Source: Lentimicrobiaceae bacterium
GTDB lineage: Bacteria; Bacteroidota; Bacteroidia; Bacteroidales; WCHB1-69
Direction of reading: 5' to 3'
Assembly (NCBI GenBank): GCA_009787485.1
Contig: WQWP01000003.1
Span: forward strand, 1-42,075
Length of the DNA: 42,075 nucleotides
Positions 64-22,258 of this stretch are shown one piece after another. How positions within the stretch are numbered: position 1 is the first letter of the stretch; each line of letters starts with the position of its first letter. A program made the position numbers and the translations under genes. The notes under the pieces were generated by a model. The model was not told the DNA's origin, did not search any database, and worked only from the letters and a program-made list of their open reading frames with translations.

Positions 64-137
64 GGTCCCTTAGCTCAGACGGTTAGAGCATCTGACTCAT
101 AATCAGGGGGTCCTTGGTTCGATTCCAAGAGGGACCA
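64..137 (+). tRNA. tRNA with CAT anticodon, most likely tRNA-Ile2 (lysidine type); elongator Met not excluded
   Basis: Acceptor stem GGTCCCT/AGGGACC, D arm TAGCTCAGACGGTTAGAGC, anticodon loop CT-CAT-AA (CAT at 98-100), T arm GGTTCGATTCC; resembles E. coli ileX-type tRNAs; CCA not encoded. Confidence 0.9.
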
Positions 138-138
138 C
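95..138 (+). repeat. attL core repeat
   Basis: ACTCATAATCAGGGGGTCCTTGGTTCGATTCCAAGAGGGACCAC; 43/44 identical to 7775-7818. Confidence 0.95.
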
Positions 139-382: not shown

Positions 383-1624
383 ATGTACAAAACAAAAGAA
401 GAAAGATTGTATTTTTTACAAGATTATCAAAATTTTGATGACATTTATTTAAAACACAGAGACGCAAATTTCAACAAAGGTAATCCACGAAAATATATCA
501 GATGTTCAAAAGAAAGTATTTTAAATTCCAAAATTATAATTTTTAAAAATCAAAAATTCAATTATCTTTGTTTGGACTGCGACAAAGGTATTAGCAAATT
601 AAATGATGAAATTATTGATTTTCTTAATCAGTATAACATAGTTTATTTTATCACACAGGGAAGTTGGACAGAGGGAAAACCGACAGACTCGGCAACGTTA
701 TGTATTCAATATAAAAATTTCAACAACGAAATTCGCAAAAAATTGAACAGACTTTTTATAGTTGTTTCGAGACTTGACGGTGAAATGACATGTGATCCGT
801 TGGCAATTGGAGATCAGATGAAATCGGTTTTCACATATCAAATGGAAAGTAAGTATTACAATAGAGAGGGTGGAAACGTTTTTGATTTAGAGAGATTGAA
901 TGAAATTGCATATTCACATTTTAATAAAAATTGGGATGAGGTAAATCGTTTGGCAAATCAATATAGAAGTGAATCGTATTATCAGAAATATAGAGCAATG
1001 AGAGAGAAAGATTTTGAGGGTATTTGTTTTAGCAAGTTGGAAAAGTATTATCAATATATGAGCAAACACAATTACAATAATTGGTTATTTATTCAAAAAG
1101 AAATTGATGAAGATTTTAATTTGATAATGAAAAAATACAAATCACTGCCATTAGCAAAGAAAATACAAACCGTCCATAAAAAAACATTAATTAGAGATTA
1201 TGTTTTGATAAATTGGTGTAAATGTGATGGTTATACGGAAGATTTAAAATTTTTTGCCGATTTATTGAAGAAAAAATTTAAGATAACATCAAAGAGACAG
1301 ATTTACAAAGTTGCGAAAGAAAAAGAAATACAACCATTCAATATAAGTTCCAAGTATTTAGATTATGTTTCTTTGATTAATGACGAACATTTAATAACAA
1401 TAAAAGACAAATTAAACGATTGCAAAACAAAGACAAGAAAACGTATAAAACCAACAAAGAAACACAAAGAACACAAAAACAAAGGGAAAGTTACAATGTA
1501 TTTTATAGAGAAGAACGGAAAGATTAAAGAAGTAAAATCAAATGAGAAGTCTGCATATTTAAAAAGAGGGTGGACGATTGTTGTAAAACCGCAACTTTTG
1601 CAAAGAGACGAATATACATTATAA
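383..1624 (+). CDS. Putative replication initiator (Replicase/ColE2-type AEP-like N-terminus, basic C-terminal tail)
   Basis: 413 aa; LCLDCD (DxD motif); CDPLAIGDQMKSV resembles the Replicase DPGYSGxxxKNP motif; first gene of the rep-xis-int cluster. Confidence 0.55.
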   Translation: MYKTKEERLYFLQDYQNFDDIYLKHRDANFNKGNPRKYIRCSKESILNSKIIIFKNQKFNYLCLDCDKGISKLNDEIIDFLNQYNIVYFITQGSWTEGKPTDSATLCIQYKNFNNEIRKKLNRLFIVVSRLDGEMTCDPLAIGDQMKSVFTYQMESKYYNREGGNVFDLERLNEIAYSHFNKNWDEVNRLANQYRSESYYQKYRAMREKDFEGICFSKLEKYYQYMSKHNYNNWLFIQKEIDEDFNLIMKKYKSLPLAKKIQTVHKKTLIRDYVLINWCKCDGYTEDLKFFADLLKKKFKITSKRQIYKVAKEKEIQPFNISSKYLDYVSLINDEHLITIKDKLNDCKTKTRKRIKPTKKHKEHKNKGKVTMYFIEKNGKIKEVKSNEKSAYLKRGWTIVVKPQLLQRDEYTL

Positions 1625-1682: not shown

Positions 1683-1979
1683 ATGAGAACAACAGATGAA
1701 AAATTCGTTGTACAATTGACGGTACAACAATTAAAAGAAATTATTTGCGAAGTAATCGCAACATCATTCACAGCAAACACATTGCCAAAATATGAATCAA
1801 CGGCAACGGAACGTGGCAAAAAATTGACTGGACTAAGAGAATTATCAAAACACATCGGTTGCGGTGTGAATAGTGCATTAAAAATCAAAAATGAGGGGAA
1901 AGTTCCATATTCAAAAATTGGCAATAGATTTTATTTTTATTCAAATGAGGTGGATATTGCATTACAACATACGGTATAG
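1683..1979 (+). CDS. Excisionase-like HTH protein (DUF3853/HTH_17-like)
   Basis: LTVQQLKEII N-terminus and LTGLRELSKHIGC...VPYSKIGNRFYF winged-HTH pattern; immediately upstream of the integrase. Confidence 0.8.
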   Translation: MRTTDEKFVVQLTVQQLKEIICEVIATSFTANTLPKYESTATERGKKLTGLRELSKHIGCGVNSALKIKNEGKVPYSKIGNRFYFYSNEVDIALQHTV

Positions 1980-2027: not shown

Positions 2028-3332
2028 ATGAAAAAACAGTCAAAGAAAAGTATTGATATTCATAACAAGGAAAGAATACCCGCAATAGAAGAAAGAAATA
2101 TTGGTGGTGTGGGAATAAGATTGATGTATGATACCAGAAATTACAAAAAAGAAGATAGGTGTCTTATTGCCGTTTGTGTAACATATTCATACAAAAGATG
2201 GTATTATCCAACCGGAACGAATTCATCCCTTGATGACTATCTCCGTATAGTAAATGCAGGAACACAGGGAAAATGGTGTGAGATGAAGAAAGATTTAGTT
2301 CGATATTTTAATTATGTAGAAACGGCTGTAAAAGAGTTGATTACAGACGGATTTTCATTAGAAAAATTAAAAGAACGTATTGGAAAGGGAAGCAAAATTG
2401 CCAAAACAGATTTATTCGGTTATTGGGAGGAGATTGCCGAGACGAAACGAAAATATAGAACAAAACAAGGTTATTTAGGTTCATTAAATTCATTCAAAAA
2501 ATTTCGCAATAATGTGAATTTAATGGTAGGGGATGTTACCGAGACGATGATTGAAGATTGGAAAGAGGAAATGGAAAGTATAGGAAATGGGAATACGACA
2601 CAAGCAATTTATTTGCGAAGTTTAAGAGCAATTTTGAATTGTGCAATAGCAGATAATATTATTACGAAAAAACCAAAAATCATATTTCCTGTAAGTAGCA
2701 GACGGACAGATAATTTCATTCCTGTAGCAGATATTTTGAAATTAAAATCGTTTGTTGCTCCTGATGATTGGACAAATGCAGAAAAAAAATGTATTCAGAG
2801 AGCAATTGATTGGTGGTTAATATTATATTGCTGCAATGGATGCAATACGGTTGATTTGGCAGAGTTAAAATGGAATGATAATTATTTTTATGACAATGAA
2901 TTATCGTTCATTAGAAGTAAGATAAGGAGCAAAAAAGAGATAGAGGTAAAAATACCAGTTATACCCGAATTAAAAGAGTTATTGAAAAAATACGGTAGTA
3001 TTCCCGAAAAAAACAAATTAGTATTTCCTCAAATTTTAAGAGATGCAGCAACCGAAAAACAAAAGGTTGACCGTATTCACGGTTTCAATAAAAAGATGAT
3101 TAGAAAATGGTTAGTTTTGCCGTGTGAAAAATTAGGTATTAGAAACATTGGTGCACAATTTGCCCGAAATTCGTTTATTACGACCCTCACACATCACGGA
3201 GTATCAGATAGTTACATTGATCGTGCAGTGGGACATACGGATAACCTTTTGCGAGGTTATCAAGGTGGGTTTTCAAAAAAGAAACGATATGAGTTTAATA
3301 GTCAATTATTTATAGACCCTGAATTAGATTAA
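2028..3332 (+). CDS. Tyrosine site-specific integrase, Bacteroidota type (arm-binding, SAM-like and catalytic domains)
   Basis: YYPTG arm-domain motif, YLRSLRAILNCA core-binding motif, NGCNTVDL, FIRSK, ARNSF, VGHT and LRGY catalytic region. Confidence 0.9.
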   Translation: MKKQSKKSIDIHNKERIPAIEERNIGGVGIRLMYDTRNYKKEDRCLIAVCVTYSYKRWYYPTGTNSSLDDYLRIVNAGTQGKWCEMKKDLVRYFNYVETAVKELITDGFSLEKLKERIGKGSKIAKTDLFGYWEEIAETKRKYRTKQGYLGSLNSFKKFRNNVNLMVGDVTETMIEDWKEEMESIGNGNTTQAIYLRSLRAILNCAIADNIITKKPKIIFPVSSRRTDNFIPVADILKLKSFVAPDDWTNAEKKCIQRAIDWWLILYCCNGCNTVDLAELKWNDNYFYDNELSFIRSKIRSKKEIEVKIPVIPELKELLKKYGSIPEKNKLVFPQILRDAATEKQKVDRIHGFNKKMIRKWLVLPCEKLGIRNIGAQFARNSFITTLTHHGVSDSYIDRAVGHTDNLLRGYQGGFSKKKRYEFNSQLFIDPELD

Positions 3333-3599
3333 TACATTATCGCTATATTTATGCAATTTTGCAAAAGAAAGTAGTTTGTTGTAATTATTTTCGGTTGTAA
3401 TAATTGTATAGGAGTTTGCATCAATTTTAATCGGTTTTAATTCCCCACGACAGATTAGGAGTATCATTTTATCCAACATGGCAATTAGTCCATCGTCGTT
3501 TTTAATATATTCATCAGAATACAAAACATATTTTTTCGTTGCACCCTCATTGACATTTTCGTTAAGAAAATTATCAAATGTTGTATATCCTTTAATCAT
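3324..3599 (-). CDS. Small hypothetical protein with a phage internal-head-protein-like leader
   Basis: 91 aa; starts MIKGYTTFDNFLNENVNE; convergent with and overlapping the end of the integrase. Confidence 0.65.
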   Translation of the reverse strand: MIKGYTTFDNFLNENVNEGATKKYVLYSDEYIKNDDGLIAMLDKMILLICRGELKPIKIDANSYTIITTENNYNKLLSFAKLHKYSDNVLI

Positions 3600-3642
3600 A
3601 GTAACCGTATTTTTTGTATATATCCCAATTTAAAATTTCATG

Positions 3643-3650
3643 TATTTTTG
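3643..3650 (+). promoter_or_regulatory. Putative TAnnTTTG -7 promoter box
   Basis: TATTTTTG followed by CACC, just upstream of the base-paired region 3710-3864. Confidence 0.45.
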
Positions 3651-3709
3651 CACCCTGATTATAAACGAAAATTTATTGCATTATGACGTAGAAATAGTCT
3701 GAAAAATTT

Positions 3710-3864
3710 AATAGTGATTTGCTATTATTCTTCCATCCAATTACGACATTAATTTATTCTTTACGGAATGATTTTGTAAATCATCAAAAAGATGAGGAAC
3801 AATTTTGCTGAAAGATATGTGTCGTAACATGGATGGCAGCAAAATTTGTTCCTCACTATTTTTT
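3710..3864 (+). ncRNA. Candidate structured RNA or attenuator leader with interlocking helices
   Basis: 3733-3748 pairs with 3820-3836; 3793-3810 pairs with 3837-3855; 3710-3717 pairs with 3853-3860; T run follows. Confidence 0.45.
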
Positions 3865-3955
3865 AATAAGTTTCAATGTGAGTACAAAAATAATAAAAAA
3901 ATAAATGGAGTTGCCGATAGCCAAAAGTGGAGGCAAAATTTTAAATTTATACAAT

Positions 3956-4180
3956 ATGGTAACGTTTTATGTAGTAAAAGATTATGAAACACCGGAACAT
4001 GCAGGTGCAAGTGGTTTATTTCAATTGATTACAGTTAGTATTCATCGTGATGATGATGAAATTGATGATGTAACAAATGAAGTTGATTCGGGTAAATTTT
4101 TTAGGGATGATGAAGAATTAAAAAAATATTTTTCAAAAGTATTTGAAATAGAAGAGGATATAATGATTGCGGAAGACTAA
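3956..4180 (+). CDS. Small, very acidic hypothetical protein (74 aa; ORF track starts it at 3905)
   Basis: ATG 3956 preceded by an A/T-rich initiation region; 21 D/E versus 7 K/R by manual count. Confidence 0.6.
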   Translation: MVTFYVVKDYETPEHAGASGLFQLITVSIHRDDDEIDDVTNEVDSGKFFRDDEELKKYFSKVFEIEEDIMIAED

Positions 4181-4370
4181 AAAAATTGTTGAAAAAACCG
4201 ATTTATTCGGTGTGATGATTGGTGTTGTGGGTAGGTATGGAGTCAGCAATGAATGATGTTGTGTGTTTAAAACATGTAAATTACATTTGTTTGTTGTATT
4301 ACAATATGTTAGCGGACATGTGTGGGTAAGTGATATGATGTAACGACGTGCAAAAAATTATTATTGATTT

Positions 4371-4386
4371 AAAAAAAAAAAAAAAA
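4371..4386. repeat. Homopolymer A16
   Basis: 16 consecutive A. Confidence 0.9.
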
Positions 4387-4480
4387 CGATGTATAAATGA
4401 TATCATAATTATTGATATTCTTTATTATTAAATTCTAAATAACAACACAAGTCATTGAACCAAAGCAAATTATTTTTTAT

Positions 4481-5064
4481 TTTGAATTTGGCGAAAATAT
4501 GAAATTATCAATTTAAAAACGAACAATATGAAAAAGAGAAGGAAACAGTTTGACTTGGAAGTTCAAAACGTAGGTGATGTTTTTTGGATCGGGTACACAA
4601 AGACACCCGAAGACTTACACTGTGATTTTGAATTTAACTTCCGTCAGGGACTGTTTCCTTTTTATTTTAAGGTTGCAAAAATAGGAAATTATCAATTAAT
4701 AACAAACAAAAACAAAATGGGAGTGTTTCGACTGAGAACCCCCTTCGAAGTAGTTAACACCTCTCAGTTACAAGACTGTAACTTTTCATGGAACAGTGCA
4801 ATGTTTTATAGTTTAAGTTCTGTTTACTTTACTCCCATGTTTTTGTTTTAATTTGAAATGCAAATGAAAAAACCGGAAATTTTGTTTTATCCAACAGGTT
4901 CCACGATGTATTTAACACATTTGGGCGAGACCTTGATAATCTGCCAGTTGTGCGCAACCATAAGGTTGACAAAATGGAAAAAAAACCTTTGGTTTCCATG
5001 TTTCCGGTTTAATTTCATTTGAATTTGCAAAAATAGACATATTAATCAATTAAAAACAATAATT
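4481..5064 (+). ncRNA. Candidate array of three ~150-nt self-closing structured RNA domains separated by a repeated spacer
   Basis: Closing stems 4539-4549/4650-4660, 4704-4724/4831-4848 and 4861-4879/5001-5021 with nested helices; spacer motif G(C)AAAATA..AAATTATCAATT..AAAAAC..ATG at about 4490, 4675 and 5027. Confidence 0.5.
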
Positions 5065-7626
5065 ATGACAAAAACAATTTTTAAAATTTTATTTCTGTCC
5101 ACCCTACTTTTAATAGGGGTAATAAACACGAACGGACAAACGTGGCCACCTGCAGGAATGCAAGGTGACGGACTAACCGCAGAAACTGCATGGGAAATCA
5201 CCACACTAAGTCATTTATTTGCACTATCCAATCATGTGAACGATTTTGATAATCAAACATCGGGTAAGTATTACAAACTGATGAACGATATTGACATGTC
5301 GGGTATTTCATTTATCCCAATAGGTGGAATGCAGTTTGAGTGGACCTATACATATACTGCATTTCGTGGAAATTTTGACGGTAACGGTAAAGTAATCAAA
5401 AATCTAACTATCAATAGTTCATCAGACAGGGTAGGATTATTTGGACACGTTGCCAGCAATGCAACATTTCAAAATCTCGGTTTGGAAAACGTCAATATCA
5501 CAGGTGGTCAATACATAGGTGGATTGATTGGAACGGTCGGTGCAATGAGAGGGCAAGCAACAACAACAGGAAACATCACAATCTCAAACTGTTATGTTAC
5601 AGGCAAAGTCACAGGTACACAATCCGTTGGCGGTCTCGTTGGGTACGTCGCACCCAATTCCACATGCAACATAACCAATTGTTACACTGAATGTAACGTA
5701 ACCGCCAACAATTTTGTAGGTGGACTGGTAGGTGATAGTCGCGGCGACATTTCCTATTGTTACACGACGGGAACAGTCAAGGGGAACGGAACTGAGTACA
5801 TTAATGCAGTTGGCGGTGTAATCGGCAGGTATCTTTCCGGAACAGTCAAAAACGTTGTTGCCGCAAATGACACCGTAATCAATTATGGTATAGGTATTGT
5901 TGGTCGTGTAATCGGTAGCAATCAAGGTACGACACCCTTAAATTGTTACGGTCTCACGACAATGGTAATCGCAAACAATAACGGTGTCAACGGTACTAAC
6001 GCAACAATCACCCAATTACAGTCCCAATCCTTTTACACAACCCCATCTAATTGGAACACATCCCCGTGGAATTTCACAACAATCTGGACAATCTGCAATG
6101 CCAAATCGTTCCCTTATTTCCAACATCAAAATAAACCTTGCCAATACACCATAACCCCATCGGCAACCGCAGGTGGTACAATTTCCCCAAACACCCCACA
6201 ATCCGTACCGGTAAACGGAAACATCACGTTCACGGCAACCCCCACCGGCAATTGCAAAGAGGTGGATGTGTGGAAAATTGACAACACGGTGGTGCAAACA
6301 GGTGGCAACACCTACACAATCCAAAATGTGCAATCCGACCAAACAATTTCCGTTTCCTTCAAAACAATAATTTACACGTTAACACCGTTGCCGGCAACGA
6401 ATGGGACAATTTCCCCGAACACCCCCCAAACGGTAGAATGTGATGGATCGCTAACAACAACATCTTTTTATGCGACCCCCAATACAAATTATGAGGTGGA
6501 TAAATGGTATGTGGACGATGTACCCGTTCAAAACGGTGGCAATTCATTTGTTTTTTACAACTGGACCCTCACTGCTAACCACACGATTGAGGTAACGTTC
6601 AAATATGTACCACCAACGTACACCGTAACGTTTGCATCGAACGGTGGCAACGGCAATATGACACCGCAAACGTTCACAGAGGGTGTACCGCAATCACTTT
6701 CACAAAATCAATTTTACCGAAACGGTTATGATTTCAAAAATTGGAACACATCGGCAAACGGCAACGGAACAACCTATCAAAACGGACAAACGATAACCGT
6801 TTCCGCAAATATGACCTTATTTGCACAATGGGAAACAACCCATATTCCCGTAACGAATATAACGAACGTTCCCACAACGGCAACCGCAAACGTTCCCTTG
6901 ACCCTTACAGGAACAGTTGTACCTTCAAATGCAACCTATAAAACAATCGTTTGGACGGTAAAATCGGCAGGAACGACAGGTGCAAAAATCGTTGGTAACG
7001 TTTTTACGGCAACCTCATCGGGAACGGCAACCATAACGGCAACCATACAAAACGGTATTTCAATGGGTGTCCCATACACAAAAGATTTCACAATAACCGT
7101 GAATACCGATTTTGTGAAAGTGACTGATATAACGAACGTCCCCACATCGGCAACCGCAAACGTTCCCTTGACCTTGACGGCAACCGTATTACCAACCAAT
7201 GCAACAAATCAATCAATCATTTGGACAGTGAAATCGCAGGGAACAACCTCCGCAACCATAAATGGCAATACGTTTTTGGCAACCTCATCGGGAACGGCAA
7301 CCATAACGGCAACCATACAAAACGGTGTTGCCGTGGGGACTCCGTTTACCAAAGATTTCAACATCAAGGTGGACACCGTTGTTGGTATTGCCGAAAACAC
7401 CCTCATAAATTTTCGGGTATATCCCAACCCGACAACCGATTACATTACAATTGACAATGAGACTAATTTCACACAAATGGCTATCATTTATGACATCAGA
7501 GGGAGTATTGTAATTTCGGCAATAATTTCCCCATTTGACAAAACCAAAGTGAATATGGGACATTTATCGGTGGGAATGTATGTATTGAGGGTAGGAAATG
7601 AAACGATGAAAATTTTAAAGGAATAA
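5065..7626 (+). CDS. T9SS-secreted surface protein: signal peptide, GLUG-motif beta-helix, divergent InlB-B repeats, two Ig-like repeats, T9SS type A C-terminal domain
   Basis: FRGNFDGNGKVIKNL and repeated VGGLVG (GLUG); YTVTFASNGG...RNGYDFKNWNT...LFAQW (InlB B repeat); VYPNPTTD...LSVGMYVLRV CTD. Confidence 0.9.
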   Translation: MTKTIFKILFLSTLLLIGVINTNGQTWPPAGMQGDGLTAETAWEITTLSHLFALSNHVNDFDNQTSGKYYKLMNDIDMSGISFIPIGGMQFEWTYTYTAFRGNFDGNGKVIKNLTINSSSDRVGLFGHVASNATFQNLGLENVNITGGQYIGGLIGTVGAMRGQATTTGNITISNCYVTGKVTGTQSVGGLVGYVAPNSTCNITNCYTECNVTANNFVGGLVGDSRGDISYCYTTGTVKGNGTEYINAVGGVIGRYLSGTVKNVVAANDTVINYGIGIVGRVIGSNQGTTPLNCYGLTTMVIANNNGVNGTNATITQLQSQSFYTTPSNWNTSPWNFTTIWTICNAKSFPYFQHQNKPCQYTITPSATAGGTISPNTPQSVPVNGNITFTATPTGNCKEVDVWKIDNTVVQTGGNTYTIQNVQSDQTISVSFKTIIYTLTPLPATNGTISPNTPQTVECDGSLTTTSFYATPNTNYEVDKWYVDDVPVQNGGNSFVFYNWTLTANHTIEVTFKYVPPTYTVTFASNGGNGNMTPQTFTEGVPQSLSQNQFYRNGYDFKNWNTSANGNGTTYQNGQTITVSANMTLFAQWETTHIPVTNITNVPTTATANVPLTLTGTVVPSNATYKTIVWTVKSAGTTGAKIVGNVFTATSSGTATITATIQNGISMGVPYTKDFTITVNTDFVKVTDITNVPTSATANVPLTLTATVLPTNATNQSIIWTVKSQGTTSATINGNTFLATSSGTATITATIQNGVAVGTPFTKDFNIKVDTVVGIAENTLINFRVYPNPTTDYITIDNETNFTQMAIIYDIRGSIVISAIISPFDKTKVNMGHLSVGMYVLRVGNETMKILKE
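6857..7370 (+). repeat. Intragenic tandem duplication with a 270-bp period (two Ig-like domains)
   Basis: For example GGCAACCTCATCGGGAACGGCAACCATAACGGCAACCATACAAAACGGT occurs at about 7008 and 7278. Confidence 0.85.
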
Positions 7627-7628
7627 TT

Positions 7629-7646
7629 TGAACAAATTTTGAACAA
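7629..7646 (+). repeat. Putative integrase arm-type site pair (right)
   Basis: Identical to 191-208. Confidence 0.7.
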
Positions 7647-7774: not shown

Positions 7775-7818
7775 ACTCATAATCAGGGGGTCCTTGGTTC
7801 GATCCCAAGAGGGACCAC
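7775..7818 (+). repeat. attR core repeat (displaced 3' half of the tRNA)
   Basis: 43/44 match to 95-138 with one mismatch (T124 vs C7804); no tRNA 5' half upstream. Confidence 0.95.
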
Positions 7819-7876: not shown

Positions 7877-9091
7877 TTATCTCTTTAACAGCCAATCTAC
7901 AATGTTGATATGTTCAATCCCTTCAATTTCAGAAGTTATTAGGTCAGTAGAGATAATATATTTTGGATAATTATCGTCAATAGATTTTAATGGACGGATT
8001 TCTCGCTCTGCTGTTTTAGGATCGGACATAGACCAAGTAACTTGATAATATTCAAATTTATTCAGTGCATTTTTTACAATGAAATCCACTTCATACGCTC
8101 CAACTTTTCCAATCCAAATCTGATAACCTCGCCTGTTTAATTCTAAATACACAATGTTTTCTAAAATATGTCCTACATCTTGATATTGAAATTTTCCAAG
8201 CTTTAAATTCCGAAAGCCAATATCTACCAAATAGTACTTTTCTTGTGTTGCAAGTTGCTGTTTACCTTTAATATCAAAACGGCTTACTTGATAAAAGACG
8301 TAAGAATTTACTAAATATTCGATATATCTTTCTACTGTATTGTGATGTATGTCTTGTTTATCTTGTTTCATTGCTTTTGAGATGCTATTTGGCGATACAA
8401 CACTTCCAATTGCACCCATTAAGAATTTTGAAAGATTATCAAATCCTCTCATATTCTGAATATTATATCTCTGCTTAATGTCTTTCTCTACAACGGTGCT
8501 GTACACGTCTTGAATATACCTGTTTTGAATATCAGCGCCTTGGCTTCGCAATAAAACGCCTTGTGGCAACGAAGTTTCATAAAGGTAGTTATTAAATAAT
8601 TCATATTTATTTAATGCCGTATTTTTTTGACTTTCAAAATATTCGCCGAATGAAAATGGCAAAATATGTATCGTAATGTAACGACCTGACAACAATGTTG
8701 CAATTTCGCCCGACAAAAAATAAGCGTTTGAACCTGTTACATACAAATCAATAAATTTCTCAGTATATAAGGCATCTATGAGTCGTTCAAATTCAGGAAT
8801 TTGCTGTGGCTCATCAAGAAAAATGTAATTCATATTTTCTTTGTCCGTTTTGGAAAAAATATCTTTGTAAATATCAAGCCACGTGTATTCTTCCGGAAAA
8901 ATCGGCTTTTCAAAATTATAGCATTGAACTCTGTTTGTTGGCGCTCCTGAATCAATAATTTGTTCAGCAAAAATTTCTAACAAAGTGGATTTACCCGAAC
9001 GTCTTAATCCTGTAATAACTTTGATAATATGCTCGTCTTTCAACTTTTCTAACTGTTGAATGTAGTTTTTTCTATTTATTAGCTCATTCAT
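7877..9091 (-). CDS. AAA_14 ATP-binding protein with DUF4143 C-terminal domain
   Basis: Walker A GLRRSGKS, Walker B IFLDE, TGSNA, KYYLVDIG, LENIVY...EVDF. Confidence 0.9.
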   Translation of the reverse strand: MNELINRKNYIQQLEKLKDEHIIKVITGLRRSGKSTLLEIFAEQIIDSGAPTNRVQCYNFEKPIFPEEYTWLDIYKDIFSKTDKENMNYIFLDEPQQIPEFERLIDALYTEKFIDLYVTGSNAYFLSGEIATLLSGRYITIHILPFSFGEYFESQKNTALNKYELFNNYLYETSLPQGVLLRSQGADIQNRYIQDVYSTVVEKDIKQRYNIQNMRGFDNLSKFLMGAIGSVVSPNSISKAMKQDKQDIHHNTVERYIEYLVNSYVFYQVSRFDIKGKQQLATQEKYYLVDIGFRNLKLGKFQYQDVGHILENIVYLELNRRGYQIWIGKVGAYEVDFIVKNALNKFEYYQVTWSMSDPKTAEREIRPLKSIDDNYPKYIISTDLITSEIEGIEHINIVDWLLKR

Positions 9092-9244: not shown

Positions 9245-12200
9245 TTACTTCTTAACAAAACTCTTCACTCCCGTGCGGTCTCCTTCTATTACACGAATGA
9301 AGTAAGTTCCTGCGGAAAGTGTAGTGATGTTGATGTCGAATATAGCTTCATCGGTTTCATATTTGGCAATATGCATACCCATGGCGTTATATACTTCAAT
9401 GGTAGCCGGCGCCGTAGCAGTACGTTTAACGGTAACTTTGTCGGTAGCCGGGTTGGGGAATAGACCGAAAGTAAGATCGTAATCGTTGATACCTAATGGC
9501 AATTTAACTGGTACAATCATATCTTTATCAGCAACAATTACATTGCCGGTTTGTGTAACATACGACAGTGCAGAAACTACCCATGGATATGTTCCGGGAG
9601 GTAAATCTTCAACTACATTACCTTCAATTGGTTCACCGTTAAATTCTATGAAAGCATCCGGTATTGGATTTCCTTCCATATCTGTTACCTCGAATGTTAC
9701 TTTATATAAACCACAAGCAGGATCGGTAATGGTAAACGGTATGGTTGCCATTGTAGATTCGCCGCAAGCAAATACTGAGGTAACACCGGCTACGTGATCG
9801 CCTTTCAGTACACCTGTAAATGTATATTCGGTTTCTGTAGTTTGGGTTACAAACTTACCATCTAAATATACATTGTAGCCGAGGAAGGTCTTCGAGTCGC
9901 TGCCTTTGCCCGGGAAGTCAACAGAAATATCATCTAACATAAAGAACCATGAGTCAACGGAAACTACATTAATAGCCAAATATACATCTTGACCTGCATA
10001 AGCAGTTAAATCAAAACTATACTCTGTCCATGTATTTTCCGGAGCTGAAATATAGGCGTCATCTTGTATGAATGTAAATGCTGCCGGAACCGGATCCGTT
10101 GTTGACACTCCTACTTTAAATCTTTCTAACTGATATACACCTGCATTCGTCCGATAAGATTTTGCCCAGAATTTTAAATATACACCTGCAGCAATCTTCA
10201 TCTTTGGTAATATCAACCAGTCATCTTGCCAGTATCCGGCATTATCGGAAGACCATGTTGTCAGATATTTATTTCCACTATGCGGCTGTGCATCCGCATC
10301 AGCGCTTAGAGCCGTTTGAGATGGATTAAATACCATATACGATTTTGGTACTGTTGCATTTGGCCAGTTAGCCTGGGTATGACTAAATGTATTTGCCCCA
10401 TCAACATCAATTAAAATATAATCGCCAATATCTGCAATAATGAAATTTTGGTAGCTTTCCATATCATCATAGAAAGGAGTGAACTGAATTTCATTATTCC
10501 ATGTAAAGAGTGCGCTACAGCCATCCACGTCTATTTCTAAACGTACCGGCTCTGTTAATTTATCAAGTACATTAGAGAACGCAGGATCAGACACTACACC
10601 ACCATGGTAGCAAGTTCTTACTGCATATCTGTACATTCCCGGAGCAGCGGTATTCCAACTGTAATCTACAAATCTCAGGTCGGTTACCGGGTTGTTGGTT
10701 AATGTTACCCATGCAGCTTGGTTATTTTCTTCTCCTTTTACAAGACGCCATAGTTTGTAACCGATAGGACCAAGCGCTTTTTCGCCGCCGCGCAACTTAG
10801 AATCATCTGTAACTACAGGCCCTTCCGACGGAGTGCTAATAATTGCAGGACCTTTCGCTAACGTAGTTTGCATGCTTCCTTCCTCTATATTGGCAGAGCG
10901 GCTGGCTCCTTTGTTGGCAACATAGCCAAACTTGCCGCCATCTGTTCCAATAGCGCGAATCATACAGTTTTTAAAGATGCTGCTCTCTCCAAACGGACTA
11001 AATGGGTAAACTGCACTTAAACTGTAATAGTTTCCGTCTGTTACGAAGGGCCATTCAGCGTTAGGAGCATCTGTTCCTACACTGGTAAAGCCACCATTAG
11101 AAGGACTTACGCCGATGAAGAATCCATCAGGACAAGCCACAGGCTCCGGAAATTCGTATTCACACCATTGTAAAGGAGTGTTCGGAATATTCAGAACTTT
11201 AAATATTACCTTGTTTCTATCAGGAATATTGTTGGTTAAACCAAGTACCCATAAATCGTAAGCCGGTTGAACTACATTGGTGGTTGAGTACCAACTCATA
11301 CTGAATAGCGTTGTGCTTTCTCTATGTACAGAGCCTATCACACTTTCGCGCGTACCTACCTCGGGGAATCCTATTTGCTGATCGTTAATTCCGCTATCAT
11401 AACGGAACTCTTTCGTTGGAAGTGCCGGCGTTCCCCAAGTAACTTCTGCATAACAATCTTCAAAATAGTTGGCTTCTACATTTCTTGGTTCTTCAGGTAT
11501 TTCTAATAAGATAATCGGTAAGTTGGTATTTCCAATAATATCTATGGTTGCGGTATAAGGTTGGAAACCTTCTGCCTCAGCATAAATTGTATATGGGCCA
11601 TCGAAAACAAACGGGAATTCAAATAAACCTAACTCAGGGCCGGACTCGGTTTCGTAGGTGTTACATCCACCTTCCAATTTCAATGTAGCGCCGTTAATGA
11701 ATGTTTGTCCATCGGCAGCTTTCACTGTACCAAATACCACACGGGTATGCAGGGAGAAATTACGTACTGTACTCATATTGGCATAAATAGTAACATTAGC
11801 CGTTGCAATAGCTCCGCAGAGATTTGCTTCTATAGCGTAGTTGCCCGGTTTCAGGTACAGGAATCTGTAGAATCCGTCTGCATTGGTCATTGCATAAAGT
11901 GCAGTACCTGTAATTTGTACTTTCACGCCTTCTATCGGAGCGCCTTGGTCATCGCTTACAACTCCGGATAATGAGCCCATTCCTTGCATGTTGAATGTAA
12001 ATCCGGCATTCGGGAGGCCTTGAGTCAGGTCGAGTGTTCCGCCGTTACCGGTTGGATTCAACAGGTCGAACTCAGCGCCACCGGCATCATCTTTGTAAAG
12101 CATTCTTGAACGTCCTGCGAGAGGAGTGCATTTGAATCCATCGGTTGAGTTGCCGTAGCCACTGTCGTATCTTTGAGAGTAAATTACCAAAATTTTACCG

Positions 12201-15200
12201 TTATATTCGTACGGCGTAGCTAATGGAATATTAAAGGTATATTTTCCTGTAGGGAAGCTTCTTATGCCGTCATATACTTCTGTAAAGATATTAGGATCTA
12301 CCCAGCCGGCATTCAGGTTATCAAGATTATCCACTTCACCTATCCATACGCGAATTCTTACACTTTGCAAATTAGTGCCGGTATGGTCAATAGATGCTTG
12401 ATAAGCAATATTGTTGATAATACCGCCATTGGTTCCAAATTCGTGTGGGAAGTATATCGATTGCGACAAACTCTTACGATAGTAGAGGTTGTAAGGCACT
12501 CTTCCTGAGTTATTTGTTGCGTTTGGATCGCCAATCTCGATGATAACCGTACCTTCAGGACTCACTGTTATTGGGAATAGCGGGGTTGTGTTATTTCCAA
12601 GGAACATGTCGCTCTCAAAATCCACATAGCCTTTAATATTTAGTATTCCAACGTGCGCTGCGGTGAAAGCATCTACCGGAACTGTATATTGACCAACGGC
12701 TTCAGGAGCTAAGAATGTGGTGATTTCGCTTTCTCCCAACAATTCATTGTCTTCTGTTAATACTTGAAGTTTAAAGTTGGTTACAGGGTTAATCCCTTTG
12801 TTCTTAACAGTTATGGTATAATCATAACTGTTTCCTACAGTTGGATTAGGTCCGGCAATTGATATGGCTTCCATATCTATATCAAAAATGCCTTCCAATT
12901 TTACTTCGTCAACATAGAGGTTAAATTGATTAGCAATAGAATAGCAATAATATCCCAGATGTAAAATTCCTGCAGGAAGAACTACTACAAATTCTGCATT
13001 AAGCATATTTCCGCCTGTACCGCTAATCGCTGTATAGTCGTGTATCACATTAGTTTGTGCAGCAACGGTATTGCTGGCTCCCCAAGTTACGCGCAATCTT
13101 TCCAGGTATGAAGTGGAGTTGGTGCCATACTTGAATGTCAGTCTGTATTCTCCTGCGGCAGGTACCATAATCGGAGGTGAAATCATCCAGTCGTTGGCAG
13201 GAAGTGTAGAATGCCAGGTATATTGTGCCAAACCGTTGTTGGGCGGAGTGGTAGTTGGCGTAGTACGTGTCCAGGTATTACCGCCGTTCAAATCAATTAC
13301 TGTCCATTCGTTGAAAACAGCTTGTGTTTCAAAGTCGCAGAAATAAGGAATGGTGTAAGGTTCACTTGGTAAACACACCTCATTCGACATCCCTGTATAG
13401 AAGTCATTCGGACAAAGAAGTTCCACTTTATAACAAGCCGCATAAATAGGGCCGAGCGGATCTACATAAGGGCTGGTAGCGCCTGTCATTATAATAGCGC
13501 CATCGCGGTAAATTCTTCCGGTAACTCCGGGCTCATTCGTCCATGAAATTCTATTGCCACCGGCAACGCGGGTAACAGCGATTACAGCAGGATCGCAATC
13601 GGGCACAAATACACAAGGCAAGTCTATCGTTTCGCAAACAAGTTCAGACTCTTGGCCATCGGGGCAAATTGATTTCACACACCACGTATGTCCACCTACC
13701 CAAGGATCGAAATCATTATCAATGTACGATTTTTTCTTTGTGGTGGCAATATGATCGCCATTACGGTAAACCATATATTCTAAGTCGCTGCCCGGGCAAA
13801 CCCTAAGTCTGAGATTAGCTCTGAATTGAGTTCTTGTCATACTTCCTGCAGGCGCTGCCGGATTTATCTGATTGTAGTCGTCGTATGCGTAGATGGTCTT
13901 ATATTGTGTAAGGGTACCTCCTGCCCAACTACTGGAGAACCAACCGGTACCCATGGTTTGGTTGATGGCAATTACAAGATTACCACCGTCATATTCAAAT
14001 GGTTCTTCAAAATCTATGGAAGTCCACTGGTCAGCTGCATTAAATGTAACCGTACCGCTATACATTAATGTCAATTCGGAAAGCGGAATAAATTCGGATG
14101 CAGTAACCGGAGTACCAAATTCGCTTTTGGTCGTAGTTCCTATATAAACCGCCACCGGAATAGTTTTTACCGCATTAACTCCGGTAGTACGATAGCCAAA
14201 TGCTACCCCTGAAATGAGCGCGCCTACAGCATCTCCAATTTCCGACTCATTATAAATGGTTTGCGTATAGGCATTATTATAAGTTGTATATATTGGTGAA
14301 CCGAGGCCTGTTGTAGTACCGGATGGAACCACTAAGCCTTCGCATTCGCCCATATCTTCAGTTACCGTTATAGATTGACATACGCTTTGCGGCCCACAAT
14401 CTTGTGAAGGAGGATAGATAGCTCTTACACAATAGCTATGCTGTCCGGAAGGCGCGAATGAATGGGTGAAAGAAGTAGTATTTACGGTTTCTAACAGCGT
14501 TCCGTTGAAACGTACTTCATATCCTGTAGGTGTGCCGGAGGCAGCCGTCCATGTTAAATTAACACTTTGACCTGGAGCTTGAGTAGCCGTAAGGCCAGAA
14601 ATTGCGGGACATGGGTCTTTGCCTGCACCTGCTATAACAAAAGATTCAACACTTCTCTCTGCGGGGAAAGTTCCGAGAATAGTAAAAGCGCCTGTTGCTT
14701 TATTAATGGTGCGCCACTGTGTTGTATTGGTTGGCAGATCTGGGCTGCGGAAAGCATGATACAAGATACCTGTTTCCGGATCAATATTAATATCCTGAAT
14801 CCAGTTTCCGGCCGGATATGTAGAAATTTGGGTAAATGCTCCGGTTGTTAAATTAAGCGTACCAAAAGTTGATTGAGTTACGCTGAGGTTCAATGCATAG
14901 CAAGTTCCGTCAACATCAATAGCAATATATCTAACTGCATCAGTTGTTGATATTTGAGTAAATATACCGGTTGCAAGGTCAATCGTTCCAAATCGGGCTG
15001 AGGGCTCAGGAAACTCTGTAGCATACGCTATACCGGTAACAGGATTTAATGCCATACTGATACAATCGGGCACCTGGGCGTTATTGGAGTTAATGATAAC
15101 AGTTGCTCCGGTTTCCGGATCCATTTTTCTATAAGAATTAACGTATGGAGCGCTGCTGGTACAAGTTACTATTCCTATTTGACCATCTGCAGGATCATAA

Positions 15201-18200
15201 ACCATAGCCTGATGAGAGAGCGTGATGGCTACAAGTGGTGGCACCGGTGCGTTAAAATCGCCCAGTGTGGTTAAAAATGCAGCGAAAGGAGGAGTGGATG
15301 AAGCCGTGGTATATACGAACGGAGAGGTTTCGCCTCTAAACGGAACAGGCGCAACGAACTCTGTTTGAGGAGTAAATGTCATGGTTCCTGCCGGAGCGTG
15401 TCTTTGCGCAAGACTGTTTGAAGCGTTATTTTGTTCTAATGCCAATCTATCCGCCATTACTTGCAGTTCGCTTTCCGGATCTACTTTAGGCGCTGCTGTT
15501 GTAAATTCAACAGGATCTTCAGTTCCTTTTCCTTTACCGGCAACGTTCCATGTTAATATCGCGCTGCAATCGTTGTCCACGCGGTCGTAATCTACTGTAA
15601 AATTAACGATCGGAAGCGCTTCACACTCATTTCCTTCAACGCAAATTGGTTTTGAAACTTCCACCGGCAGCGATTGGTCGCCTGTTTCGCAAGCCACAGT
15701 TACCGACCAGGTGTGAGGTACATTGTTGTTGAAAGATGCGGTATAAGTAGTGCCTTCGTGATTTGCAACAAGAAGTGCGCCGTCTAAATATATATTGTAG
15801 GTAACATCTCCGGGGGTAGGACCATCAGGACTGGTTATTAAAACATCATCAATAAATGCGTCATCGCCATCCCACTCATAAGTAAAGTCATGGAATCCCA
15901 AATAGTAGGTTCCGCTTGTTGTAGGTGTAAAAGTGTAAGTAATTTGCGTCCAATTGGCAAAGTATACATTGAGATTTTTATACACTTCCACACCGCTATT
16001 CATTGCTGAAATGGTTGGATTTTGGGCTATTTTTACTTCAAAGCGATTTCCATCACCGGCATTATATCCCATCAGCGCCCAAAAACTTATTGTATAGGGA
16101 ACACCTTGTGTTAGAGCAACACCGGGGCTAAACATCCACGCATCTTTATCAGCTTCGTCATCCCACCAGCAAGCAGCTGCTTGGTCTCCGGTATATGCTT
16201 GCCAATCATCAACAAACCACCACCAGCCATCGCCAACAGATGTTTCTGTCCAGCCGTCCGGCAAATCAAAAACATCAGCATCTTCAAATCCTTCCGAAAG
16301 AAGAATGCCTTTAGAATAATTAGGAGCTAAGCCGGGTGTATTGTTACGTTCAGCTCTTTTTTGAAGTATCGTTTCTTTTTTTACCGATTTTTCTTTTTCG
16401 CTTTTCTCAACCCGAATATAATCAGGGTTTGTGGCGCCTTTTCCTTTCGCCGGCGCCGTCCACGACAATGTTGCAGAATTACATGCATTGTTGTAAGCAA
16501 CGGTTAAACCTGTTGCGGGGTCGCAATCGCCTGATGGCGGTTGGCAAATTGGTTTTGCTACTGTTACCGGATCTGATTCGCCGCCATCTTCGCAAACTAC
16601 TTTCACCGACCATGTATGAGGTACATTGTTTTCGAAAGTTGCGGTATAATTAGTGGCTGCAGTTGTGGTAAGTAGTGTACTGCCTCTATATACATTATAT
16701 GTAACATTTCCGGGGGCAGTTCCACCTGTTATTTGTGCATATCCGTTTCCTGAGGGGTCTGGGTTCGCCACAAAGTTAGGTTCGCCGAATTTGATGGTAA
16801 TTCCGTTTGTAACTCCATCAATATTTCCGGAGCCTGCGCCGCCGCCGCCGCCCCAATGTCCTGCGCCGCCGCCATACCAGCCGCCGCCGCCGGCACAACC
16901 GCCTAAACTACCATTATAACCGCCGCCAGTTCCAAAACCGCTGGGGGGTACATTATAACTGAGCATCTGTGTGGCACCTGCGCCACCGGCTGTTTGTGTG
17001 CCACCTTGTCCGAGATTTGCTGGTGCTCTGGAAGAAGTACCGTCGCCGCCGGTTAAACCGCCGCCGGCGCCACCATGACTGTTTACATATGAATTGTAAC
17101 CGTCGGCGCCACCGCCACCGCCGCCAACAATGATTCTGTTGGCATAAGTGTCGTTTTGGGTGGTTCTTATATCTGTTCCGCCGCCGCCGGTACCTCCGTC
17201 GTTACCGGCAGAAAATGTTCCTGTAATAACGCCGCCACCGTTCCAGCCGCCTGCAGCCGTTCCGGGTCCTGTAGAAGTACCTCCCTTTCCGCCAACATAA
17301 ACATAATAGGTTGTGGGCGCTGTAACATTAATCGTTCCTTTTGAGTATCCTCCCTTACCTCCTGATCCATGTTTGGCATTTCCGCCATCGGCGCCCCAAA
17401 CTTCAATTTCGTAAGTTCCGGGTTGCAGCTCTACGGGTTGCGGTGCGCCTGTGTAGGAGAAAATTTGGGTGTTCGTGCTTTTGCCGGCCGGGGCTGTCCA
17501 CGACAATGTCGCAGAATTACAGTTTAAGTTGTAATTAACAGCTAAGTTTGTTGCGGGGTTGCACTCGCCGGGCTCATCTCCACCTTCACAGAAATTGAAT
17601 TTTATATTCGGACGGTTGGTGAGTCTTGTTCCGGTACCCGGGGCTGTTGGATCATAAACACTGCCATCTCTTCTTGCGTGTATGGTTTTTTCCCCACTGG
17701 TAGCTGTTCCGTTCCAAAGCGGGGTGGTAGTGCTGCCTATATAAGCGTTAATTCCATTTTTAAAGTTTACAGCTACTACAACATTATTGCCACTATAAAC
17801 AAATGGAACATCAAGTTCAATATATATCCAACCTGCTTCACATACCACAGGCCCGTTATATACTAATTCCATATCAGCCGGCAACACCCAATCGGTAGTG
17901 GAGGCAAAAGTGGTCTTGGTGGTATTTCCCAAATAAATATCCACATTGGGGAAAGTAAAAGGCGTATGAATATATTGGAAGTTGAGCGCTGTGATTTCAC
18001 CTGAACTGCCATATCCAATCTCCGCAGCATCATATATTTGTTGCGCGTATGAAAAATAGTTGAACGATCCTATTGGAGCTGCAGGCATTCCTACTGTTCC
18101 TTCGCCCACTTGATAGGGCACTTCGGTTTCTTGACAGGTATGATATTTGCAGGGCTCCATAGTTGCGCTCATGGGGTCAGATTCGCCCTGTTCGCAAACC

Positions 18201-20896: not shown

Positions 20897-20980
20897 AATG
20901 AATAAATTTTGGTTAATAATTATTTTGGTTTGATTTTTATGTGATTTTTTAGTTAGCTTCTTTATTATATAATTAGCCTG

Positions 20981-20988
20981 CAAAAATA
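20981..20988 (-). promoter_or_regulatory. -7 promoter box for the giant gene
   Basis: TATTTTTG on the minus strand about 85 nt upstream of ATG 20896. Confidence 0.6.
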
Positions 20989-22017: not shown

Positions 22018-22092
22018 GCCGCGTTCGTCTAGCTGGCCCAGGACATCAGGTTTTCATCCTGAAGATCAGGGGTTCGAATCCCCTACGCGGTA
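22018..22092 (+). tRNA. tRNA-Glu(TTC)
   Basis: Acceptor GCCGCGT/ACGCGGT, anticodon arm TCAGG-TT-TTC-AT-CCTGA, T arm GGGGTTCGAATCCCC. Confidence 0.92.
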
Positions 22093-22258
22093 CAAAATGA
22101 AAAGCCAATTATTTACAAATGAAATAGTTGGCATTTTTGTTTTTATGGTTTTGGCACGTATTTGGCATTTTATCCGTTTTTGCTTTAGATTTTAATAAAA
22201 AAGAGAAAACCGGAGCAAACTTAATTACCCCGGTTTCCCACAACCATGAAAACAAATA

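Follow-up and report, generated by a model that had tools for sequence, protein, structure and literature searches.

Three different fold-back segments framed by copies of a cargo promoter, leader and start codon in a tRNA-Met island of a Lentimicrobiaceae bacterium: possible sense/antisense RNA units

How did three different self-closing segments come to stand in tandem ahead of a single cargo gene, and do they serve any purpose there? The question is raised by positions 4481-5067 of a 42,075-nt stretch of DNA from a Lentimicrobiaceae bacterium (order Bacteroidales; GenBank assembly GCA_009787485.1, contig WQWP01000003.1, forward strand; the whole stretch is referred to here as the window), in which the segments, D1 to D3, are separated by a locus-specific repeat, S. 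The array belongs to a 7.7-kb integrated island in tRNA-Met that also carries a tyrosine integrase, a primase-like protein (p413) and an adhesin-like cargo gene of the type IX secretion system (T9SS). We found that S is the promoter-leader-ATG region of the cargo gene itself, of which three additional copies are present. Tentatively, we favour an account in which the array consists of three autonomous sense/antisense fold-back RNA units, resembling type I toxin-antitoxin (TA) systems or dual-function small RNAs (sRNAs) in architecture. The array itself is real, statistically solid and apparently unique; its units may give rise to sRNAs or to tiny proteins, or may have no function at all.

The three segments differ in size and shape. 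D1 is a continuous 129-nt rod (4536..4664), D2 a 148-nt segment with a closing helix of ~19 bp and two inner hairpins (4703..4850), and D3 a 171-nt segment closed by a 9+11-bp helix around inner hairpins (4856..5026). The helices listed in an earlier sequence-only reading were all present at their places. The arms of D1 are formed by AAGGAAACAGT (4540-4550) and ACTGTTTCCTT (4650-4660), together with TGAC/GTCA, GGAAGTT/AACTTCC and TCGGGT/ACCCGA. D2 is closed by AAACAAAAAC..ATGGGAGT (4704-4724) and ACTCCCAT.GTTTTTGTTT (4831-4848), and D3 by CAAATGAAA.AAACCGGAAA (4861-4880) and TTTCCGGTTT..TTTCATTTG (5002-5022). The nested pairs proposed for D3 exist in the sequence and are only partly those of the minimum free energy (MFE) fold, and the ACTGAGA/TCTCAGT pseudoknot suggested for D2 proved to be an ordinary nested hairpin in that fold. 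On direct reading, the closing helices differ from unit to unit with their complementarity kept (GGAAACAGT/ACTGTTTCC, ATGGGAGT/ACTCCCAT and ACCGGAAA/TTTCCGGT), and they sit in flanks that are otherwise homologous among the S copies. The arm ends read GGAAACAG/CTGTTTCC, AAAAACA/TGTTTTT and CCGGAAA/TTTCCGG. Each segment is bounded by inverted repeats of 11-21 bp. At its foot, each rod takes in the stretch with the promoter boxes of the following S (repeats I4 and I15); only part of this stretch lies in the basal stems.

Folding was significantly more stable than expected for all domains and on both strands (z -3.2 to -5.7). For the whole array, the RNA fold had z-scores of -4.44 (plus strand) and -4.80 (minus strand), and none of 100 shuffles was as good. 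Single domains were tested against 200 shuffles in each of six tests, with 0/200 as good in every case: D1 reached -47.0 kcal/mol (z -4.88) on the plus strand and -39.3 kcal/mol (z -5.66) on the minus strand, D2 z -4.10 (plus) and -3.17 (minus), and D3 z -3.88 (plus) and -4.83 (minus). With DNA parameters, the values were z -4.04 / -3.53 for D1 and -2.84 / -3.07 for D2, where two of 200 shuffles reached D2 on the plus strand. G-U pairs had been taken to favour the plus strand. This holds for D1, whose arms comprise 40 Watson-Crick pairs, seven G-U and no A-C; it fails for D2 and D3, where the ratio of G-U to A-C is 3:2 and 1:2. A G-U excess on the plus strand would moreover be produced by the positive GC skew of the array region (+0.24) alone, and z-scores against each strand's own shuffles gave no preference for the plus strand overall.

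As single structures, the rods are not outstanding for this genome, since D1 and D3 ranked only 128 and 207 by GC-corrected energy among 358 candidates seeded by inverted repeats (D2 was not seeded), and since many palindromes resembling miniature inverted-repeat transposable elements (MITEs) are far more perfect than D1-D3. The unusual trait is the presence of three different rods in tandem with a common module between them. The palindrome families of the genome, an observation in their own right, are 130-190 nt long and near-perfect, with long terminal inverted repeats and energies of -90 to -138 kcal/mol (e.g. C152:2881-3069, C150:1259-1438, C46:11560-11739, C75:2417-2606, C1:21991-22178, among others), and palindromic arrays of GGTTAGTG-type repeats occur at C105:2736-2869 and C6:28603-28704. 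A MITE or dispersed palindromic repeat was rejected as an identity for the array, as BLAST against its own genome and the D1 model gave no further copies.

The module S links the three segments to the cargo gene. S1 (4465..4531; nhmmer E 1.9e-9), S2 (4649..4720; E 3.4e-12) and S4 (4999..5068; E 5.5e-9), the last being the copy that serves the cargo gene, align over ~65 nt with their ATG at a fixed place (4528, 4717 and 5065). S3 (4843..4880, ATG 4858) is a degenerate, shortened copy that the S profile did not find at E ≤ 10, and it was recognized by the repeat families and the box scan. The ~180-nt periodicity noticed earlier is accounted for by direct repeats at 4475, 4659 and 5012 (77% and 64% identity to the first) and a weaker copy at ~4846. 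The spacers had been described as shared, weakly so in unit 3; S3 is indeed degenerate, and these elements are not mere spacers, being copies of the cargo promoter, leader and ATG. In the 2.26-Mb genome, the next best match of the profile after the three S copies had E 0.049. A degenerate S pattern matched three times in the genome itself and once each in two of 400 other genomes of the order, both times within coding genes. By these comparisons, S1, S2 and S4 are true paralogues restricted to the locus, and, because the copies correspond to the cargo promoter-leader-start, the array represents a triplication, in place, of the module that expresses the cargo gene. A single multi-domain non-coding RNA (ncRNA), as suggested earlier, is unlikely, given that each of the units comes with T-runs and a separate copy of the promoter.

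Around its centre, the junction of TTTG and CAAA, S is imperfectly palindromic, and it bears -7 boxes of the host type on either strand. In this genome, the -7 consensus is TATTTTTGC, located 20-45 nt ahead of ATGs; it agrees with the Bacteroidota TAnnTTTG/TTTG promoter type described in PMC7366714. Like the T9SS sorting domain of the cargo protein, this consensus points to an organism of Bacteroidota type. On the plus strand, the boxes are TGAATTTG in S1 (4483-4490), TAAGGTTG in S2 (4668-4675), TTAATTTG in S3 (4848-4855) and again TGAATTTG in S4 (5020-5027, 37 nt ahead of ATG 5065). All of them have one mismatch, and the ATGs of S1, S2 and S4 follow the plus box by 37-42 nt, as in host genes. 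The minus-strand boxes, TATTTTTG in S4 (5035->5028), TTCATTTG in S3 (4868->4861), TATTTTTG in S2 (4683->4676) and TATTTTCG in S1 (4499->4492), have 0, 1, 0 and 1 mismatches in this order, and each is followed by C (by CA in S2, S3 and S4). The only two boxes of the array without mismatch both belong to the minus strand, where they occupy homologous positions of S2 and S4; the S2 box also has TTTG exactly 19 nt upstream. One further box with one mismatch was found inside D1 (4623-4630); the others lie in S, between the segments closed by inverted repeats. As a separate genome-wide observation, the motifs ACTAACCACTAACC and TTAAATCTTTAAAT were enriched in the 60 nt before long open reading frames (ORFs), with ~70-94 occurrences compared to 7-18 further upstream in 1008 upstream regions.

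In each of the three units, the frame starting at the S ATG is free of stop codons. Between one and six stops interrupt each of the five remaining frames, and every minus-strand frame has at least one. Unit 1 (U1, 4528-4716) spans 63 codons, unit 2 (U2, 4717-4848) 44 codons, and unit 3 (U3, 4858-5019) 54 codons. In dinucleotide shuffles, the probability of an open frame was 0.020 for U1, 0.056 for U2 and 0.082 for U3, with a product of 9e-5, or of 0.008 when only the right halves were shuffled. Two open frames result on the plus strand: (i) a 107-codon frame (4528..4851) that runs from the S1 ATG through D1 into S2, contains the S2 ATG (4717) in frame and ends in S3, with no stop compared to 2-6 in the other five frames; and (ii) a 54-codon frame of the ORF list through D3 (4858..5022). 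The 107-aa ORF has been called as a gene in public sets, as a singleton; the 54-aa ORF was absent from the protein collection. In units 2 and 3, the closing helices bury the start codon, with a predicted pairing probability of ~1.0, compared to 0.6-0.99 for codons 2-8 of unit 1 and 0.3-0.4 for the cargo start. These buried start codons, the stop-free frames behind the S ATGs and the perfect -7 boxes on the minus strand are new with respect to the sequence-only reading, whose description was otherwise confirmed and whose interpretation is partly supported, being kept open here but sharpened.

From the folds, the paralogy of S, the boxes and the open frames, we infer transcription, its direction and any function as follows. 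The array would comprise three mini transcription units, each on its own copy of S. Since S carries host-type -7 boxes on both strands, each D would be transcribed convergently from its flanking S copies. The left S may direct a plus-strand RNA whose leader is A-rich and whose open frame is short (63 codons without a stop of its own, 44 and 54 codons, respectively). This RNA is predicted to fold back on itself, with its start region paired to its 3' end. On the minus strand, which has the better promoter boxes, the right S might yield a non-coding hairpin RNA of ~140-160 nt, extending from the foot of the rod to the T-run behind it. The units could then act as cis-encoded sense/antisense RNA modules of the island. 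In line with this, the sole terminator-like site between 3300 and 5300, a hairpin with T-run (4191..4211, minus strand), is located just left of the array and faces minus transcripts coming from the array side. No fourth domain was found left of S1, the minus strand of 4185-4490 being unstructured (z -0.10).

Several observations weigh against these units being functional RNA genes. The interiors of D1, D2 and D3 are unrelated to one another. Template switching can maintain imperfect palindromes without selection on RNA. Judged by base composition, chance alone should place a perfect -7 box roughly every 600 nt, both strands counted, in such AT-rich DNA. U1 lacks its own stop and runs in frame into U2, giving rise to the 107-aa ORF. 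For this ORF, phmmer against 1.84 billion representatives returned only itself and two weak matches to proteins of more than 1,400 aa; 14% of its residues are Phe, as much as in 0.86% of real 107-aa windows, and its Atlas model has a pLDDT of 0.35 and a pTM of 0.19. The peptides are also without a transmembrane-like stretch (best 17-residue Kyte-Doolittle windows 0.68, 1.25 and 1.34), so that the commonest kind of type I toxin is not present. Furthermore, the array stands alone in the comparisons made. BLAST against 60 relatives gave matches of at most 73 nt (best E 2.5e-6), none of which spanned a domain, and no array homologue was found in the 400 genomes of the order, which were searched with the S pattern only. 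The D1 covariance model found D1 alone (152.9 bits), missing D2 and D3 at E ≤ 10 and matching nothing else in the genome. None of ten related metagenomic islands has the array (blastn and tblastn). Against its own genome, array BLAST gave the self match and matches of at most 54 nt only; nearly all of the short matches are to promoter or leader parts. The proposed Rfam check likewise matched no family: over 3600-5200 at E ≤ 10, there were seven chance-level matches with 9-23 bits, compared to cut-offs of 50-180.

The open frames admit a simpler view, in which the cargo promoter copies drive ordinary small proteins, i.e. orphan products of 107 and 54 aa, and the structure of the mRNA is incidental. 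The stop-free ATG frames at host-like distance from the plus boxes argue for it, as do the gene calls and the codon score of the 107-aa ORF (0.093), which is near those of island genes (0.13-0.14) and borderline, being in the top 5% of spurious ORFs. Yet the 54-aa ORF scores -0.059, like spurious ORFs, the start codons are buried in helices, and folding with z -4 to -5 is rare for coding sequence. Together with the orphan status, Phe content and poor structural model of the 107-aa product, this makes ordinary small proteins an unlikely explanation. The 107-aa ORF matched no family in Pfam, PHROG or NCBIfam, and galectin, suggested as a lead by Atlas (0.85), was discarded because this score is at chance level in the calibration of Atlas itself.

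Alternatively, the array could be debris of duplication: the palindromic cargo promoter-leader-start would have been duplicated in tandem, leaving functionless, decaying remnants. The segments might, for instance, be fold-back copies of the 5' end of a small gene of the relatives. Quasi-palindrome correction at the DNA level would maintain the palindromes. The slot ahead of the cargo gene in related islands bears on this idea. Cargo homologues occupy the same place in islands L017 (50% identity) and L020 (46% identity), and in both a single small, unrelated ORF (86 and 67 aa, respectively) lies between the integrase module and the cargo homologue. S1 and the left arm of D1 are co-linear with the promoter and the first ~60 nt of the L020 small ORF, the alignment stopping near the apex of D1. 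With z 2.0, reached by 5.6% of shuffles, this alignment alone is not significant and is suggestive only; moreover, the unit peptides gave no BLASTP alignment with the small ORFs of L017 and L020. In L017, the slot contains one 98-nt rod and a terminator, and this rod-plus-promoter region was rejected as an array homologue (z -0.12, weak alignment). The single occurrence of the array, its absence from the ten related islands, the unrelated interiors, the tolerance of the genome for many long palindromes and the non-protein-like appearance of the ORFs all fit debris, which would account for both the uniqueness and the odd peptides. It leaves unexplained why each of three adjacent, different segments folds significantly, why the closing helices differ among units yet stay complementary, and why the frames are open (P 9e-5; 0.008 on the assumption that the left halves descend from coding sequence). 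On balance, debris is possible, though we regard it as rather doubtful.

A role in single-stranded DNA (ssDNA) is suggested by the significant folding of D1 and D2 with DNA parameters (z -2.8 to -4.0) and by p413 (383..1624, plus strand), the core protein of the island. Here, with the excised island replicating or being transferred in single-stranded form, the rods would be ssi-like priming sites for a primase of the archaeo-eukaryotic primase (AEP) or RepB'-like type, or Frpo-like hairpin promoters for early cargo expression. No family in Pfam, PHROG or NCBIfam matched p413. Its AlphaFold (AF2) model (pLDDT 74.7) resembles AEP primase-polymerases and RepB' in the N-terminal domain: for residues ~3-195, VIA-align Z-scores were 6.6 for Prim-PolC, 6.5 for S-2L PrimPol, 6.3 for LigD-pol, 6.3 and 5.8 for two RepB' entries and 5.5 for CAPP. 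The same AEP/RepB' proteins formed the top rows of the Foldseek result (E ~0.08-0.09, best 0.079), and the Atlas leads agreed with a primase-polymerase likeness (0.81-0.82). According to this model, p413 is probably a primase or replicase, although its Z-scores (5.5-7.1) are middling by the alignment tool's own calibration and often reached by models without clear matches. Primases of the AEP/RepB' type work on hairpins of ssDNA, and the title of PDB entry 3h25 describes RepB' bound to initiator DNA. Frpo-type promoters come several per region upstream of ORFs (PMC11541004). The overlap of the rod feet with the boxes of the following S (I4, I15) also fits this explanation.

The ssDNA explanation meets several difficulties. 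The array lies 2.9 kb from p413, whereas hairpins in relatives adjoin the p413 gene (L019 2180-2480). Known ssi hairpins measure ~40 nt. No relaxase was recognized among the island ORFs scanned with Pfam, PHROG and NCBIfam, a scan that did not extend to a search for oriT. In a hairpin promoter, the most stable fold is expected on the template (minus) strand, where D1 has the poorer RNA energy (-39.3 vs -47.0 kcal/mol). The open frames are left unexplained. We therefore consider such ssDNA signals unlikely, if marginally less so than ordinary small proteins. Each of the three readings raised at the outset (ncRNA, sRNA cassette array and ssDNA signal) nevertheless found partial support, in the folding of both strands as RNA and DNA, the framing promoter-like boxes and the primase-like p413. 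The hairpin cluster L019 2180-2480 (z -6.2) is next to p413/DUF3853 genes, as are iteron-like inverted and direct repeats of TATAAAAGAGGTAGATTTT at L023 10711-10839; both are candidate origins or operators of the island family.

Recombination offers a further alternative, with the segments as invertons that switch the adhesin-like cargo or as integron-like hairpin cassettes stacked at S by the tyrosine recombinase. The recombinase gene (2028..3332, plus strand; Phage_int_SAM_5 1.3e-12, Phage_integrase 7.8e-5, PHROG 1 integrase 3.3e-19) is 1.1 kb upstream, and inverted repeats bound each D. Direct S copies flank the D segments as att copies flank tandem integrated elements, and the perfect promoter boxes are turned from the cargo gene, an orientation expected of a switch in its OFF state; phase variation is typical of genes for surface proteins. 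On the other hand, the integrase has att sites of its own in the tRNA, and the NCBIfam integron integrase model (integrase_gron) gave only 12.3 bits compared to a cut-off of 265. RYYYAAC/GTTRRRY cores were not found on direct reading of the arm ends. An integron with an attC array was rejected on these two grounds, and an inverton because no promoter lies within a segment bounded by inverted repeats save the one-mismatch box in D1; the promoters are outside, and the S copies are only 64-77% alike.

In X1 and X2, two sequencing runs that may be the source, the contig pieces listed over the array (3913-7037 and 3913-6754, respectively) showed one arrangement with no differences, rare forms being invisible in contigs, and none of the main joints fell within the array. 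We consider recombination substrates very improbable. Two runs from other samples contained identical island fragments at a depth of 2-4; in X3 and X4, there was next to no cover over 4385-4658. One low-depth contig (~4.7) in X1 and X2 breaks at ~4859 and is joined to ~1429 (in the p413 gene) with 16 other letters between; as the comparison allowed matches down to 80% likeness, it may derive from a related element.

A bolder extension combines these ideas, with S as an expression-and-capture site at which hairpin-only cassettes were stacked ahead of the cargo gene by the tyrosine recombinase or a hairpin-dependent route; in a milder form, the units would be the first type-I-like sense/antisense addiction modules described for the phylum. 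We consider this the least probable of the proposals. If the capture site were true, Bacteroidota would possess a platform comparable to an integron, with genes for fold-back RNAs in place of protein genes as its cassettes.

The remainder of the island is compact. The source genome bin comprises 2.26 Mb (39.7% G+C, 86% complete), and the sequencing runs containing the region are labelled termite gut metagenome. The tRNA-Met gene (64..138, plus strand; Rfam 70.3 bits, also found by ARAGORN) provides attL with its 3' part (95-138). A 44-nt repeat of this part, with one mismatch, forms attR at the right island end (7775..7818, plus strand). In the whole window, two tRNAs were the only Rfam matches at gathering score. 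The motif TGAACAAATTTTGAACAA is repeated just within both island ends (191-208 and 7629-7646). Beyond attR are an AAA_14/DUF4143 ATPase gene (7877-9091, minus strand) and, between it and tRNA-Glu (22018-22093), a 3912-aa ORF (9245-20983, minus strand).

Between p413 and the integrase gene lies a DUF3853-like small protein (1683..1979, plus strand; Pfam PF12964, E 2.8e-4, 21.4 bits, just below the cut-off of 22.1), a possible excisionase or regulator. Close relatives of the integrase and of p413 were not found in genome or viral contigs. Relatives occur only in metagenomes (21 proteins for the integrase and 12 for p413), and among 152 genomes of the family p413 is present in this one and absent from the 151 others. 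Two orphan ORFs of 91 aa follow the integrase gene (3324-3599, minus strand; 3905-4180, plus strand). A promoter, TATTTTTGCAC, and a long 5' leader ahead of the 91-aa gene at 3905 (3640-3905) are conserved with L020 2580-2860; the leader hairpin of ~65 nt (GAGGAACAATTTTGCT ... AGCAAAAT.TGTTCCTC) is common to L020 and the window, and the leader may be regulatory. Sixteen consecutive A (4376-4391) immediately to the left of the array may be prone to slippage; reads appear to be cut around them (4360-4395). The cargo gene (5065..7626, plus strand) encodes a secreted protein of 853 aa with Pfam GLUG, Listeria-Bacteroides-repeat (List-Bact) and Big_2 domains and a T9SS C-terminal sorting domain. 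Related island L021 (9503-11142) has another cargo, with two ORFs of 60-nt (20-aa) tandem repeats in 17 core copies.

Whichever explanation holds, the array probably affects expression of the secreted adhesin-like cargo gene, because it sits directly ahead of it; here, an adhesin-like gene is carried by a mobile element in a gut symbiont. If expressed, the array would show in compact form how a mobile island can make new genes for small RNAs or peptides out of copies of its promoter. It might instead serve for maintenance as a sense/antisense module, of which hardly any are known from this phylum, and the palindromic S would be a natural two-way promoter part for Bacteroidota. If it is debris, it would illustrate how promoter duplication and fold-back copying yield gene-like, stop-free, structured units that pipelines annotate as protein.

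How, then, does the array compare to known systems? The ssiA and ssiB sites of RSF1010 are priming sites for RepB'. Frpo-like promoters are long imperfect hairpins with both promoter boxes in the stem, in the leading region next to oriT of conjugative or mobilisable elements. With the ssi sites and with Frpo promoters (PMC11541004), the array shares long imperfect DNA hairpins upstream of genes in a mobile element with a RepB'/AEP-like protein; it differs from Frpo promoters in that its boxes are only partly inside stems, and from the ssi sites of RSF1010 in hairpin size and in its distance from the primase gene. It also resembles promoter reuse by putative mobile promoters, where one promoter and 5' region stands before unrelated sequences (PMC3575422). 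This feature is present in the array, whose S copies (E 3.4e-12 to 5.5e-9) precede unrelated interiors; in contrast to the putative mobile promoters, the copies are in tandem at one locus, in units of 130-170 nt, without dispersed genes.

Like an integron with attC sites, the island has a tyrosine recombinase next to a series of imperfect palindromes (60-170 nt) with a common hairpin shape but different sequences. In contrast to integrons, the recombinase is not IntI-like, R''/R' cores are lacking, and the palindromes are separated by a conserved element, a position taken by variable ORFs in integrons. Tandem sRNAs of the OmrA/OmrB type are similar in that adjacent units have their own promoters, conserved flanks and unrelated middles; in the array, the conserved part is promoter and leader, not the RNA ends proper, and the bodies are long rods.

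In type I TA systems such as hok/sok, ibs/sib and txpA/ratA, the toxin ORF is small (below about 60-70 codons), the peptide is hydrophobic and membrane-active in most families, and toxicity upon expression is relieved by the antisense RNA. These systems differ from the array in two respects: the array peptides have no transmembrane-like stretch and belong to no Pfam toxin family, and the predicted antisense RNA would overlap the whole unit. Type I systems are not known to have been described from Bacteroidota. The likeness to these systems, on which the sense/antisense account draws, consists of short ORFs (44-63 codons), each behind its own S promoter copy; an mRNA predicted to fold back with its 5' start region paired with the 3' end; a promoter on the opposite strand that would give rise to an overlapping antisense RNA; and the arrangement of the units as tandem copies on a mobile element.

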